Origin: Myxococcales bacterium
GTDB taxonomy: Bacteria > Myxococcota > UBA727 > JABDBI01
NCBI GenBank assembly: GCA_947445025.1
Contig: CANFCB010000002.1
Span: forward strand, 18,802 to 82,801
Direction of reading: 5' to 3'
Length of the DNA stretch: 64,000 bases
How positions within the stretch are numbered: the first letter of the stretch is position 1; each line of letters opens with the position of its first letter. Under the pieces are notes generated by a model. That model saw only the letters and a list, made by a program, of their open reading frames with translations. It was not told the DNA's origin and did not search any database. The translations under genes and the position numbers were made by a program. Shown here piece by piece: positions 34,713-39,278 of this stretch.

Positions 34713-35765
34713 ATGGCAGAAAGCGGAGAAAAAACCGAAGAAGCGAGCCCTCAGAAAGTGCGTGAAGCCAGAGAGAAGGGACAAGTTTCTAAAAGTCAGG
34801 ATTTTGTTTCTGCAATTGTTTTTGTCGGCGCTTTTGCTGCACTCGCCGGTAGTTTAACAATTGTTGCCGAGAAAATGAGCGAATTTATTATAGCCTGCAT
34901 GAAAGCAATTTCACGTCCGGATTTAGATTTGGCTGCCAAAGAGATTTTAAATCAAGGTTTATATACTTGGGTTTTGGTTTCTTTGCCTGTTTTGGTGACG
35001 GCATTTATTTTAGGCCTGGCTGGAAATTATATGCAGGTTGGTTTTTTATTCACGACCGATCCCTTAATCCCCAAATTGGAAAAGCTAAATCCTATTCAAG
35101 GCATGAAGCAACTGTTTAGCGTTAAGCGCATGGTTGAAGTATTAAAACAAATCGCTAAATTTGCCATGGTTTCATATGTTGTTTACCAAGCCGTAAAAAG
35201 TGCCTTGCCCAATATCGTTTTGATGCAGCGTCTCGACTTGTTCTCTTCCCTGGGTATTATTGGTGGCATTATTAAAGATATTTGCATCCGCGTGGCTGCT
35301 TTGTTTTTGGTAGTGGCTGGTGCTGATTATTTTTGGCAAAGGCATGTTTTTAAAAAAAGCTTAATGATGACCAAACAAGAAGTGAAAGCCGAATACAAGC
35401 AATCTGAGGGTGATCCTGAATTGAAAGGTGAGCGCAAGAGATTAGCGCAGGAACTGATCATGCATGGTAGTCAACAGAACGTAAAAAATGCCGACGCGGT
35501 GGTGACTAATCCTGCGCATATTGCAGTTGCAATTAAGTATGACAAAGAACGAAAAACGGCTCCCATGGTCATAGCCAAAGGACTGCGTAAAAATGCGGAG
35601 ATTATCAGAGAGATTGCCAGAAAAAATGATATACCTATTTTAAGGAATGTCCCTTTGGCTCAAGCATTAAATAAACTGAATTTAGACGAAGAAATCCCTG
35701 AAGAACTTTATGAAGCGGTCGCTGAGGTTTTAAATTTTGTCTACGAACTTAAAAATAAAAAATAA
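34713..35765 (+). CDS. type III secretion export-apparatus switch protein (SctU/FlhB family)
   Basis: The N-terminus is GEKTEEASPQKVREAREKGQVSKSQD. Four TM segments follow. The C-terminal domain carries the autocleavage motif as NPAH (canonical NPTH) in VVTNPAHIAVAIKYD, and the protein ends in DIPILRNVPLAQAL. No other export-apparatus genes are adjacent. Confidence 0.85.
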   Translation: MAESGEKTEEASPQKVREAREKGQVSKSQDFVSAIVFVGAFAALAGSLTIVAEKMSEFIIACMKAISRPDLDLAAKEILNQGLYTWVLVSLPVLVTAFILGLAGNYMQVGFLFTTDPLIPKLEKLNPIQGMKQLFSVKRMVEVLKQIAKFAMVSYVVYQAVKSALPNIVLMQRLDLFSSLGIIGGIIKDICIRVAALFLVVAGADYFWQRHVFKKSLMMTKQEVKAEYKQSEGDPELKGERKRLAQELIMHGSQQNVKNADAVVTNPAHIAVAIKYDKERKTAPMVIAKGLRKNAEIIREIARKNDIPILRNVPLAQALNKLNLDEEIPEELYEAVAEVLNFVYELKNKK

Positions 35766-35796
35766 TGAAAGTTCAAAAAGTGAAGCGAGGTAGCAA

Positions 35797-36282
35797 ATGG
35801 AAGATGTAACCAATAAAATTGGCGCTAAAATCGAACAGTGGATCGAGCCACGGTCTGTTGATCTTGCGCAGGCGGTCAGCGACGGCTTGTTTAGTGAAGT
35901 AAAACCATCGCTGGCAAATTCCCTGCCGGCGGATATAGCGCCTTTGCCAGATTTTAAGTCGCTGCAATTAATTAGTGGGCGACTATCTCCAGAGTATTTG
36001 CGCTTAGGAGGTCCGATTAACACTACCCCCTTTGCCTCTTCTCCTATGGGGGAATATCATGATTACCATATGATAGCCGCCGTGGTTGAGCGCCTGCACA
36101 ATCCAAACGCAAAGCAGCTGGTGGCCCTATTGCAAAGGCCTTCCAAAGATATTTCCGAACGCGATAATAGTCATATGCGTGCTTCGCTCGCTCGTGAATA
36201 TAACATGGGTAATGTATTGGAAAGGTACTCAGGTTATATGGTAATAATTTGTGCTCAGAGTACACGCCATAAGGAAGGATAA
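35797..36282 (+). CDS. hypothetical protein (161 aa) between sctU and a T3SS chaperone gene
   Basis: The ORF has no TM and no recognised motif. Its stop lies 1 nt before the chaperone ATG. Its position suggests a T3SS substrate or partner, which is inference only. Confidence 0.45.
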   Translation: MEDVTNKIGAKIEQWIEPRSVDLAQAVSDGLFSEVKPSLANSLPADIAPLPDFKSLQLISGRLSPEYLRLGGPINTTPFASSPMGEYHDYHMIAAVVERLHNPNAKQLVALLQRPSKDISERDNSHMRASLAREYNMGNVLERYSGYMVIICAQSTRHKEG

Positions 36283-36283
36283 T

Positions 36284-36772
36284 ATGGTAAAGACGCCAGA
36301 GCAGCTCGCAGAATTATTACCGCAATGGGCTAAGGGTCAAGTCACCCTAAAAGAGATAAAAGGCTATACCGACGGTGAATTGTTTGCCATTGCCCGCATT
36401 GGTTATTTCTTTTTAATGCAAGGCAGAAATGAAGAAGCGCGCATACTATTTGAAGGTCTGGTCGCCGTCGATCCACACAATGATTATTACTACCGTGCGC
36501 TTGGTGTGATCTTTCAAAAGATAGGCGACAACGAGCGTGCGCTTCGCCAGTTTAGCTATGCGGTTCGCATTAATCCTGCTTCTCCTCATGCTTACGTGAA
36601 TCGGGCCGAAATTTATTTATCATTAGATCAGTATGCTGAGGCAGAGAAAGATTTGCGTCAAGCTTTAGAGCACATTCCCCCTCAAGAACAACAGCTTTCG
36701 CAAAAAGCCTGGGCGCTTTACCGTGTGGTTGCTGCGCAAAAAAATCTCAAAGAAAAAATGGCTAGCCTCTAA
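36284..36772 (+). CDS. class II T3SS chaperone, SycD/LcrH/CesD family (TPR), copy 1
   Basis: It is colinear with LcrH: TLKEIKGYTDGELFAIARIGYFFLMQGRNEEARILFEGLVAVDPHNDYYYRALGVIFQKIGDNERALRQFSYAVRINPASPHAYVNRAEIYLSL. An RBS (aaggaagga) precedes ATG 36284. Confidence 0.8.
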   Translation: MVKTPEQLAELLPQWAKGQVTLKEIKGYTDGELFAIARIGYFFLMQGRNEEARILFEGLVAVDPHNDYYYRALGVIFQKIGDNERALRQFSYAVRINPASPHAYVNRAEIYLSLDQYAEAEKDLRQALEHIPPQEQQLSQKAWALYRVVAAQKNLKEKMASL

Positions 36773-37751: not shown

Positions 37752-37869
37752 GAAGAACCTCCCAATCGGACTGATATTTTCAAGTATCGCCGCCTATATA
37801 AAAATGTTGCCCATAAAAAAACTCTGCTTTACGCAGAGTTTTAGCTGTTTAAGGAAATTTAAAACAATC

Positions 37870-38418
37870 TTAACGAATATTTTGGATGATGCTTTGTCGA
37901 AGGCTATGCTCAGCAGATTCAATGTTGGACCAAAGTGTCATTGCATCATTCCAGTTGTCCAAATTTTTTTTTATGAGGGCAAGCTGTTTTGTTTTTAGCT
38001 CCTCTGGAGTCAGGTTTTCTGCTCCATCCACCACGTTGCTTGCCATTACAGGCATTCCATCGCCCACGCCTTGTTGCTGCATATATTGCTGGCTTTGTGC
38101 CGTATTTGACATCATATTTCTCATAGATACAGGTAAATTTTCAGGAGAGTAGTAAGATCCTGAATTTTGCATACTATTCGCATATGCTTGGCTAGGCGAC
38201 ATAGTATTGAAGGACGTTTGCGTACCGTTGTTCGTCGGACGCATATTGGCAAACTGATCCTGCGGGTTGTTAGACATGATATTTTGCAGCATGTTAGGTG
38301 TCATGTCAGAGGCTTTCGTTATTATCGCGTGCGCAGTGTCAGGACTGAGGACTGTCAGAGGCGAATCTTGAACCGCTACAGGTTGAATATGGGCTGGATT
38401 TGAATAGATGTTAGTCAT
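37870..38418 (-). CDS. putative T3SS needle/filament-family protein (SctF-like C-terminus with ~130-aa Q/N/M/S-rich N-terminal extension)
   Basis: The last 20 aa, WSNIESAEHSLRQSIIQNIR, align to the MxiH/PrgI end QSNTVKVIKDVDAAIIQNFR (shared SN and IIQN-R). A helix-turn-helix-like NLTPEELKTKQLALIKKNLDNW lies upstream. There is no signal peptide. Confidence 0.5.
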   Translation of the reverse strand: MTNIYSNPAHIQPVAVQDSPLTVLSPDTAHAIITKASDMTPNMLQNIMSNNPQDQFANMRPTNNGTQTSFNTMSPSQAYANSMQNSGSYYSPENLPVSMRNMMSNTAQSQQYMQQQGVGDGMPVMASNVVDGAENLTPEELKTKQLALIKKNLDNWNDAMTLWSNIESAEHSLRQSIIQNIR

Positions 38419-38672
38419 AATGTTTACCTGCGTTAAACGTGCCTACTAATCAGATTTTATCATTTGCATATAAATAATCCAAATTTTGTTCAAATAATTC
38501 TCAAAGAGTTTATTTTCCAAAGGTAGCATTAGGGGCGCATCTTGAAATAAATAAGTCTGTTAGCTGTTGTGTATTTGTCAGAAGAAACGGCAGCAATATT
38601 GACTTTGGCTCGGTTTAATTGTTACACTTAAGGAAACTTCCTATTTGCTGTGATTTTATAAGAGGAAAATAT

Positions 38673-39278
38673 ATGGTTACAGAAAAAAACCCAAAGTCGC
38701 CAGGTTCGACAAAAGATTTCCTGAAGGTGATTACCAGCAATACGGCAGTTGCCACAAGCAGTGGTGAAACTGAAACTGTAACGCCAGAAAACATTGCAAA
38801 ATTTATTCGTGGAGAAATGACCTGGGCACAAGTGCAAGGCATCGGCATGAAGCAAGCCTATGATTTGGCAGAAATTGGATATCAGCTGTTTTTACAAGGG
38901 AAAAATAGCGATGCGCAAAAGATCTTTGAAGGTTTGATTGTGCTGAATCCTTATGATGGATATTTTCATTCGGTATTGGGTTCAATTTTTGCACGTTCTG
39001 GCGAGTCGGATAAAGCGGTTCGGGAATATTCTATAGCCATTAATTTGGATCCAAAAGATCCACAAGCACTAGTGAACCGTGCCGAACTTGAGCTGCAAAA
39101 AGGCCAATTTGAAGATGCTTTGAATGATTTAAAAGCAGCCATAGCTTTGGATCACGATGGACAAAATCCAGCCGTGATTCGTGCTAGGGCTTTAGCCAGC
39201 GCGACAGTTTCCATGATTACAGAAATATTAAAATCGAAGCAGGCGGCAGTGCCTACCCAAAGCCCGCCAAAAAAATAA
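38673..39278 (+). CDS. class II T3SS chaperone, SycD/LcrH/CesD family (TPR), copy 2
   Basis: MTWAQVQGIGMKQAYDLAEIGYQLFLQGKNSDAQKIFEGLIVLNPYDGYFHSVLGSIFARSGESDKAVREYSIAINLDPKDPQALVNRAELELQKG. An RBS (agagga) precedes ATG 38673. It is divergent from the two substrate-like genes. Confidence 0.8.
   Translation: MVTEKNPKSPGSTKDFLKVITSNTAVATSSGETETVTPENIAKFIRGEMTWAQVQGIGMKQAYDLAEIGYQLFLQGKNSDAQKIFEGLIVLNPYDGYFHSVLGSIFARSGESDKAVREYSIAINLDPKDPQALVNRAELELQKGQFEDALNDLKAAIALDHDGQNPAVIRARALASATVSMITEILKSKQAAVPTQSPPKK

Follow-up and report, generated by a model that had tools for sequence, protein, structure and literature searches.

A complete gene for an export-apparatus switch protein of the SctU/FlhB family lies in a 64,000-nucleotide stretch of a Myxococcales bacterium genome (assembly GCA_947445025.1, contig CANFCB010000002.1; hereafter the window), and neither sctRST nor sctV is found beside it. 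The question that this locus raises is whether the orphan gene, together with two genes for tetratricopeptide repeat (TPR) proteins and three genes of no known family around it, belongs to a system for type III secretion (T3SS), and to which kind. On balance, we lean to the view that it is an accessory locus of a non-flagellar, deep-branching T3SS with dispersed genes, of the myxobacterial kind named T3SS*. LcrH homologues and an intermediate SctU are already known for the T3SS* of Myxococcota; the variant features of the present locus are the long-standing orphan state of sctU, a clade-wide NPAH motif and possible needle-type tails in a supposedly needleless system. The Myxo-type T3SS* is regarded as an evolutionary intermediate between flagellum and injectisome and is needed for prey lysis by Myxococcus, but neither a substrate nor a needle or translocon of it is known; the needle-tail proteins, paired here with LcrH-type chaperones, would be concrete candidates for its exports and their assembly. 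The locus comprises the following features:

34713-35765, + strand: sctU, orphan gene for a full-length export-apparatus switch protein of the SctU/FlhB family, 350 aa (Pfam Bac_export_2)
35508-35519, + strand: NPAH, a variant of the NPTH autocleavage site, in SctU (N266-P267-A268-H269, from the translation)
35797-36282, + strand: orf161, 161 aa, of a family without known match that follows sctU clade-wide
35998-36015, + strand: LRLGGP in orf161, resembling the P/VxLxxP class-II chaperone-binding motif (translation and motif comparison)
36284-36772, + strand: TPR1, candidate LcrH/SycD-like (class II) T3SS chaperone, 162 aa (TIGR02552 as best family)
36762-37751, - strand: orf329, lineage-restricted, 329 aa, the N-terminal half variable and Q-rich, the C-terminal half highly conserved
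36942-37076, - strand: segment of orf329 rich in Gly and Ala ("glycine zipper"), aa 226-270, moderately hydrophobic (translation)
36765-36905, - strand: C-terminal helix module of orf329, 46 residues (SRQIQFEKLK...SNIL...NIRG; family alignment)
37870-38418, - strand: orf182, lineage-restricted and fast-evolving, 182 aa, its body disordered and rich in N, S, Q and M, its C-terminal helix conserved
37873-38010, - strand: needle-subunit-like C-terminal module of orf182, an LTPEE turn and a helix ending ...SIIQNIR (hhalign against SctF)
38673-39278, + strand: TPR2, second candidate LcrH/SycD-like chaperone, 201 aa, with an N-terminal extension of ~45 aa (TIGR02552 as best family)
33543-34661, + strand: gene for an Rsm22-like S-adenosylmethionine (SAM) methyltransferase, stopping 51 nt upstream of sctU (Pfam Rsm22, E 8e-21)

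An earlier note on this DNA had described six genes, namely the orphan sctU, a 161-aa open reading frame (ORF), two TPR genes and a pair on the opposite strand, and all six were recovered at these positions. Its description of a complete SctU without sctRST or sctV neighbours was also confirmed, by a full profile match and by the lack of any such gene in the window. The ATG of TPR1 (36284) lies exactly 1 nt past the stop codon of orf161; a longer ORF starting with GTG at 36251 is an option, and independent gene calls on the source contig take the ATG. For TPR2, whose longest ORF has a TTG start at 38619, the ATG at 38673 was taken. The opposite-strand pair of orf329 and orf182 is bracketed by the TPR1 and TPR2 genes, the latter lying 2 kb downstream. 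The six-gene order is complete in one related locus (L007) and kept up to the contig end in another (L008). Relatives whose SctU is 87% and 60% identical keep the arrangement, so that it is no chance juxtaposition.

The identical SctU protein is also encoded by metagenome contigs in ENA, the longest of 115 kb, and by the metagenome-assembled genome (MAG) GCA_947497785.1, and the nearest genomes are MAGs labelled Myxococcales or Myxococcota, with SctU identities of 87% (JAHFEG01) and 60% (PBLQ01, JBMTAX01). In a large protein database, the uncultured "Myxococcota" clade to which it belongs counts more than 120 SctU clusters of 55-91% identity, named SctU or EscU/YscU/HrcU by PGAP and FlhB by JGI. 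The host is an uncultured low-GC Myxococcota-like lineage; the GC content is uniform over the window (~0.42) and native, so that a recent transfer leaves no sign. The sctU gene is orphan in every clade locus examined, including a 1.33-Mb and a 528-kb contig, and across the more than 120 clusters, from groundwater, marine and other metagenomes, it stands stably apart from the other export-gate genes. The order efp, small ORF, Rsm22-like gene, sctU is kept in four relatives (L007, L008, L092, L093), an orf161 homologue of 131-169 aa follows sctU in the same four and in L009, and a TPR gene follows this homologue in L007, L008 and L093. The Rsm22-like methyltransferase gene is the constant upstream neighbour of sctU in all clade genomes examined; it belongs to the context of sctU and is possibly co-transcribed with it or tied to it in function.

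We then examined on which side of the flagellar/non-flagellar divide the orphan SctU falls. Pfam Bac_export_2 (PF01312) matched the protein at E 1e-112 over the entire profile (1-335/335), with the four-transmembrane domain and the C-terminal cytoplasmic domain. On the NCBIfam profiles it obtained 360.3 bits for SctU (TIGR01404, cut-off 358) and 346.9 bits for FlhB (TIGR00328, cut-off 349.25), thus passing the SctU cut-off and outscoring the FlhB profile by a small margin. The difference between the two scores (SctU minus FlhB) was +13 bits for the window protein and +13 to +24 for four clade members, compared to +127, +106 and +174 for the injectisome controls YscU, HrcU and Spa40 and to -168, -82 and -85 for the flagellar controls of Salmonella, Clostridium and Pseudobdellovibrio. 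The T3SS*-type protein of a Bradymonadales contig (L013) exhibited +12, and because the difference of the window protein matches this value, its SctU behaves like a T3SS*-type SctU. The T3SS* type stands at the base of all non-flagellar systems according to Abby & Rocha (PMC3459982).

Raw similarity placed the SctU at about equal distance from the flagellar and injectisome groups, with identities of 38-40% to Firmicutes FlhB, ~40% to the Bradymonadales protein, 34% to YscU and HrcU and 26% to Spa40. Non-clade matches are nearly all found within fliMN-fliPQR-flhB-flhA-flhF operons; among the best of them, the one exception is the Bradymonadales contig, where sctR-sctS-sctT-sctU are followed by a 128-aa TPR gene. 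A neighbour-joining tree (47 sequences, 346 columns, 200 bootstraps) was built with nine annotated injectisome SctU and five annotated FlhB from plasmid records, and with FlhB-family proteins of the similarity-search loci labelled by gene context. The clade was supported at 100% and was sister to the protein of the Bradymonadales sctRSTU and TPR locus at 54%, and the flagellar proteins formed a separate group at 58% with the clade outside. We regard the protein, with modest confidence, as an apparent intermediate between FlhB and SctU, neither a typical injectisome nor a flagellar one. By the proposed sub-family profiles and phylogeny, the protein counts as non-flagellar and as one of Myxococcota type, with weak tree support (54-58%). 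The "injectisome-type" label of the earlier note does not hold in the classical sense, the score difference being +13 vs +106 to +174 and a PDB search giving 194 bits for FlhB vs 111 for SpaS. In the Bradymonadales contig (L013, 3318-5385), genes for a 562-aa and a 124-aa protein come after sctRSTU and the TPR gene; the two proteins resemble, by eye, a double-receiver and a single-domain response regulator.

LcrH-type chaperones are a feature of non-flagellar T3SS, and both TPR proteins of the locus resemble this type. In the search with the TIGR02552 profile (LcrH_SycD), TPR1 obtained 84.3 bits (E 6e-24, profile 3-133/136) and TPR2 84.8 bits (E 4e-24, nearly the whole profile). This expectation of the earlier note was upheld in part: TIGR02552 is the best NCBIfam family of both proteins by more than 40 bits (the runner-up is at ~40 bits) with full coverage, and the curated cut-off of 104.8 was not reached. 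The PDB matches are PcrH, SycD and AcrH, colinear end to end. In hhalign comparisons with a profile of LcrH, IpgC, AcrH and SicA, TPR1 matched at 97.7% (P 2e-12, positions 1-161 against 1-166) and TPR2 at 97.9% (P 6e-13, positions 35-207), and the alignments take in the non-TPR N-terminal helix and the F..L...D.Y/H signature; with P values of about 1e-12 and full-length colinearity, the proposed likeness to class II chaperones is well founded. TPR1 and TPR2 are paralogues of 32% identity. Like the class II chaperones (LcrH/SycD, PcrH, IpgC, SicA, AcrH), TPR1 has a size of ~160 aa, and the TPR proteins have an N-terminal helix and three TPRs with conserved GxxT(L/I) and F..L...D.Y/H motifs. They differ from them in their identity of 15-28%, below the curated cut-off, and in that the genes beside them do not code for canonical translocators, one client candidate being upstream and the others on the opposite strand. 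An LcrH-like TPR gene also directly follows sctU in five Bradymonadales-type loci (L013, L118-L121), and the 128-aa one of L013 matches TPR1 and TPR2 at 32-34% identity (tblastn). The T3SS* cluster of M. xanthus is reported with several LcrH homologues (PMC10433427).

The cleavage motif of the SctU was correctly read as NPAH instead of NPTH, but it is no peculiarity of this gene, since it is the majority state across the clade. Among 120 clade proteins, we counted NPAH in 86, NPTH in 20, NPSH and NPVH in five each, NPNH in three and NPDH in one; N, P and H are invariant and only the third position varies. NPTH was found in all 14 reference SctU/FlhB from annotated records and in the Bradymonadales protein. 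NPAH thus reads as an old relaxation at one position, common to the clade. The Asn and Pro residues are essential for autocleavage (PMC2615192). Cleavage at NPAH is likely. Among EscU C-terminal fragments searched with a PAH query, the best score was that of PDB entry 3BZV, a cleaved two-chain EscU which we take to be the T264A mutant. The Thr of the "strictly conserved" NPTH being usually Ala in this clade, the family amounts to a natural experiment on the requirements of autocleavage.

The rest of the machine was searched around the locus. No sctR, sctS, sctT, sctV, sctN, sctJ, sctQ or sctC and no flagellar gene was found in the 64-kb window, and ~10 kb beyond each window end on source contigs contained housekeeping genes only and no T3SS gene. 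FliP, FliQ, FliR, FlhA, FliM and FliN had no match in any clade locus, and nearly all non-clade loci have them. The statement that the organism carries an injectisome-type system was therefore not borne out, no other core gene being present in ~85 kb. A metagenome scan with the Bradymonadales SctR gave ~70 loci with a GC near 0.42 and the order sctJ-x-sctL-sctRST without sctU. These JGI loci (L125-L197, e.g. L133 7353-11792, L194, L130 and L144) hold sctJ, a ~285-aa gene, sctL (FliH), sctR, sctS and sctT, neither sctU nor sctV coming behind sctT, in the order of the chlamydial cdsJ-L-R-S-T; in L133 and L194, three or four tandem genes of the Legionella outer membrane protein (OMP) family come after sctT. 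We considered them as the missing half and rejected them: their elongation factor P (EF-P) is only 41-45% identical to that of the clade, so that they represent another lineage, probably Chlamydiota according to the gene order and the Legionella-OMP-like neighbours.

Compared with known systems, the locus resembles T3SS* ("Myxo" group, Abby & Rocha 2012; M. xanthus MXAN_2434-2464; Bradymonadia) in the Myxococcota label shared by its MAG relatives, in an SctU intermediate between FlhB and injectisome SctU whose nearest sister is a Bradymonadales sctRSTU locus, in LcrH-like TPR genes near sctU (PMC10433427), and in that no secretin, needle or translocon gene is annotated. It differs in its orphan sctU, the described Myxo loci being compact clusters (PMC3459982), in the GC content of 42%, in a SctU only ~40% identical to the Bradymonadales T3SS* protein with NPAH for NPTH, and in the needle-like C-terminal helix of two proteins, which is not reported for T3SS*. 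The earlier note had called scattered T3SS clusters typical of both Chlamydiae and Myxococcales; this stands for Chlamydiae but not for Myxococcales, whose genes are described as clusters (PMC3459982). The genes of the chlamydial T3SS are spread over several loci (cdsU-cdsV; cdsJ-L-R-S-T; scc2-copB-copD, scc3-copB2-copD2), as proposed here for the window organism, and both have two paralogous LcrH-type chaperones, of which one is extended at the N-terminus. In Chlamydiae, sctU adjoins sctV, and the chaperone genes precede those of large hydrophobic translocators on the same strand. Unlike Chlamydiae, the window organism has type IV pilus, two-component and Ser/Thr-kinase genes, and the chlamydia-like sctJ-L-R-S-T metagenome loci belong to a lineage other than its own.

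The genes between and beside the chaperone genes were examined as candidate substrates. For orf161, neither a Pfam, NCBIfam or PDB match nor a relative outside the clade was detected. Four of five orf161 relatives carry LRLAVP at residues 64-77 and the window gene LRLGGP, while the motif is absent from L093; this LRLxxP is at an N-terminal distance similar to that of the translocator P/VxLxxP (residues 50-66). The protein also gave a weak hhalign match with the N-terminal region of SctW, the gatekeeper (P 0.007). Because the two genes look translationally coupled and the conserved LRLxxP resembles the class-II binding motif, orf161 may be a client of TPR1.

Neither orf329 nor orf182 has a Pfam, NCBIfam or PDB match, and proteins of the orf329 family gave only faint Pfam glycine-zipper and DUF6861 matches. 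Only 15 homologues of orf329 were found among 5.8 billion clusters; the C-terminal half is almost invariant, with an amphipathic helix, the Gly/Ala zipper (aa 226-270) and a final helix, and this last module is nearly invariant across the family. For orf182, five matches were found among 1.84 billion representatives, and its identity to the L007 orthologue is 35% (tblastn) or 44% (family alignment) compared to 66-96% for the neighbouring genes. Its conservation is limited to short N-proximal motifs and the last ~46 residues, the tail being the sole strongly conserved part. As had been noted before, both proteins lack an N-terminal hydrophobic signal peptide and have low-complexity N-terminal parts, rich in Q, N, S and M in the translations. 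The lack of a signal peptide, the disordered N-terminal parts and the very fast evolution of orf182 make the two proteins substrate-like. As for SctE/SctB (YopB/YopD, IpaB/IpaC), their genes lie beside class-II chaperone genes; unlike them, the proteins have neither a transmembrane (TM) helix nor P/VxLxxP, and the genes are on the strand opposite to the chaperones. The maximal KD19 value was 1.17 for orf329 and 0.55 for orf182 vs 1.9-2.9 for eight reference SctB/SctE proteins, and P/VxLxxP, present at residues 50-66 in seven of these eight translocators, is absent from both families. Translocators of the canonical kind are thus not what these genes encode, and the possibility that orf329 is a YopD/IpaC-like minor translocator was discarded on hydrophobicity and the missing motif. 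Against SctE, orf329 gave a weak hhalign match (P 0.005), and an anchored comparison of the C-terminal helix gave z values of 4.4 for IpaC, 3.5 for YopB and 3.3 for IpaB.

A shorter orf329 subfamily (276-282 aa) has its own conserved position (L087 10001-10831, L113 10001-10831, L114 10001-10849), directly upstream of a gene for an rseP-like M50/PDZ protease. Upstream of the short gene, L087 and L114 have genes for small membrane proteins and for a subunit of an Mrp/Nuo-type antiporter, and L113 a 3296-aa ORF without Pfam match. No T3SS gene was found near these homologues on the three long contigs.

The comparison of the orf182 family with five SctF needle subunits gave an hhalign P of 2e-4 (46%), better than the P of 4e-3 of a known-homologous needle-vs-rod control in the same test. 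The confident part of the match covers the turn and all of the C-terminal helix and stays in register up to the last residue (...IIQNIR compared to ...IIQNYR and ...ILQKFP). The tail alone scored 28.4, against 9.9 +- 2.5 for column shuffles, 10.6 +- 2.3 (maximum 20.4) for heptad-preserving shuffles and 8.7 for the reversed tail. The tails of orf182 and orf329 match each other (hhalign 69.6%, P 4e-5), and a hidden Markov model (HMM) of their common module retrieved YscF and AscF as the top two matches among 73 reference proteins (E 2-3e-4). Other families, 13 of T3SS and 15 flagellar, gave P >= 0.08 in the hhalign comparisons with the orf182 module. A likeness of the orf329 tail to the flagellin C-terminus, noticed by eye, was not supported by hhalign against flagellin and 14 other flagellar families. 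Unlike SctF (YscF, MxiH, PrgI; PF09392), a helix-turn-helix protein of ~80 aa, orf182 has 182 aa, with a disordered low-complexity N-terminal part of ~135 aa replacing the first helix, and unlike in needle systems no YscE/YscG-type chaperone is encoded at the locus. As a bona fide needle protein orf182 was rejected, the Pfam needle model being unsupportive, and we retain only a needle-type C-terminal helix.

A non-flagellar T3SS of the T3SS* kind would work with these proteins as follows. The SctU would sit in an inner-membrane export gate with SctRSTV encoded elsewhere in the genome, would cleave itself at N|PAH and would set the order of substrates; the TPR proteins would keep partly unfolded secretion substrates in the cytoplasm, orf161 may be a client of TPR1 and a clade-specific partner of SctU, and orf182 and orf329 would be exported. 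Through their needle-type C-terminal helix, they could attach to the machine's axial channel or polymerise on it, with orf182 acting as a needle- or filament-like subunit and orf329 as a membrane-active protein using its glycine zipper. While the identities of the genes, their synteny, the family placement and the sequence similarities are direct results, a complete export gate elsewhere, the binding of the neighbours by the TPR proteins, and their secretion and tail-driven assembly we infer from sequence. The more elaborate form of this proposal, a T3SS* with axial substrates in which orf182 is a divergent needle- or filament-type subunit whose needle C-terminal helix is joined to a variable, disordered outer part, orf329 a new kind of pore-forming tip or translocator with a glycine zipper in place of TM helices, the LcrH-type proteins their chaperones and orf161 a factor in switching, is tentative and in our estimate rather unlikely as a whole.

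Several results speak against the assignment to a T3SS*. No other T3SS core gene was found in ~85 kb of genome or in the clade loci examined within +-10 kb, and that a machine exists is deduced only from the intact SctU. This protein has a higher raw similarity to FlhB than to classical SctU, as the PDB scores given above illustrate (full-length FlhB ahead of SpaS), and its non-flagellar placement is weakly supported, in a tree without Myxococcus or Chlamydia SctU. Both TPR scores are under the curated cut-off. Neither orf329 nor orf182 has the TM helix or binding motif of canonical translocators, a subfamily of orf329 lies next to the rseP-like gene, far from sctU, and the AlphaFold2 models have low confidence: all-helical with pLDDT 45.6 for orf329 (14-sequence alignment), and pLDDT 43.1 with one long helix at 138-181 for orf182 (five sequences). 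The needle match concerns the C-terminal helix and not the whole hairpin, whose first helix is replaced by the disordered region; the Pfam needle HMM (PF09392), which detects YscF at E 1e-28 and MxiH at E 1e-25, did not match orf182 at E <= 10, and a home-made needle HMM ranked orf182 first among the 399 ORFs of the window but at E 0.5.

Three other explanations were considered. That the gene is a flagellar FlhB in an organism with scattered flagellar genes, the TPR genes and the three unknown genes being unrelated to it, agrees with the same family, length and domain structure, with the highest raw similarity, including the best non-clade matches among Firmicutes FlhB (38-40%) in fliPQR-flhB-flhA operons, with the PDB ranking, with the JGI naming of clade members as FlhB and with an FlhB profile score only 2.4 bits under the cut-off. 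We judge it quite improbable, as sctU is outside any fliR-flhB-flhA operon and neither the window nor the clade loci hold a flagellar gene, the SctU profile scores above the FlhB profile, unlike in three of three flagellar controls, and the clade falls, weakly, outside the flagellar group of the tree. The LcrH-type chaperones are moreover non-flagellar, one of them also following sctU in the Bradymonadales T3SS*-type loci, and, for the C-terminal module, needle subunits gave a match but none of the 15 flagellar families did. Unlikely, to a lesser degree, is that SctU is an orphan remnant or a repurposed protein left after the loss of a T3SS, with the TPR and glycine-zipper proteins acting independently of it, e.g. 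as membrane-active toxin or stress proteins with TPR partners; the locus would then exemplify an orphan export-gate protein retained over a long time. The absence of core genes near sctU in five clade genomes, the clade-wide relaxation of the third NPTH position (A, T, S, V, N or D) and the orf329 relatives away from sctU are in line with such a loss, as is a pilQ-like neighbour without secretin domain, which shows that envelope machines decay in this sub-lineage. However, SctU is full length with a complete TM domain, 55-91% identical over more than 120 clusters and invariant at N, P and H, a conservation hard to explain without a partner export gate. Chlamydiae are known with dispersed T3SS genes (PMC3459982), and the ~2-4% of each genome that was inspected is a small part of it.

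The last explanation leaves SctU, orf161 and the TPR proteins in a T3SS* and takes orf329 and orf182 as ordinary effectors or unrelated coiled-coil proteins whose needle-like tails are convergent. It is a serious possibility, although we lean against it. The failure of the Pfam needle HMM and the poor E value of the home-made one, the restriction of the match to one helix, the low-confidence models and the description of T3SS* as needleless in the literature (PMC12075869, PMC10433427) all agree with convergence. On the other hand, the profile-profile match is specific, keeps its register up to the C-terminus and scores far outside the nulls preserving composition or heptads, the reverse HMM search ranks needle subunits first, and strong conservation in orf182 is confined to the tail. 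An accessory locus of a T3SS* is, with moderate confidence, the reading that we retain.

The surroundings of the locus are ordinary chromosomal genes, as shown by Pfam scans of the other large ORFs: tamB, PEPCK, gatA, htrA, holB, pilD-pilN-pilO-pilP, a pilQ-like gene, efp, a KamA-family radical SAM gene, a two-component pair, glycine-cleavage genes and guaA. The 64-kb window gave neither a tRNA nor a match to Rfam, and promoter and terminator scans gave nothing above background. The T3SS-related block sits between efp (32611-33168) and the KamA-family (lysine-2,3-aminomutase family) radical SAM gene (39303-40436), which scores above the KamA subfamily cut-off and below the EpmB and AblA equivalog cut-offs. 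If this gene codes for the EF-P beta-lysylation enzyme, the block would split a functionally linked pair; kamA is adjacent only in close relatives of the window (L007) and not in L092 or L093. Just downstream (40444-42400, - strand) are genes for a response regulator of the LuxR/GerE type and for a HisKA_3 histidine kinase whose N-terminal region is multi-TM; the two are 93% and 88% identical in L007 and are candidate local regulators.

The pilQ-like gene (31566-32522, + strand), which comes after pilD-pilN-pilO-pilP and has efp directly next to it, codes for only 318 aa with AMIN, N0 and STN domains. It is without a secretin domain, as in clade member L093, and the more distant member L092 has at the orthologous position an 853-aa PilQ with Secretin_N and Secretin domains. 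The secretin domain of the type IV pilus has been lost or relocated in the sub-lineage of the window.

Further along, a 1604-aa ORF (46093-50907, - strand) fuses aldehyde dehydrogenase and class-III aminotransferase domains, an unusual fusion. It is part of a small cluster for amine/aldehyde metabolism, in which its neighbours are an AAT-family (acyl-CoA:6-APA acyltransferase-like) gene and another gene for a class-III aminotransferase. A sulfate-permease-family gene (59893-60924, - strand) encodes 343 aa in the window, 124 + 341 aa in ERZ27280192 and a single protein of 487 aa in ERZ27280196, and a beta-carbonic anhydrase gene at about 58757-59431 (- strand) is found as two ORFs (92 + 130 aa) in both ERZ27280192 and ERZ27280196. 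These split ORFs suggest a frameshift polymorphism or pseudogenisation between near-identical populations.

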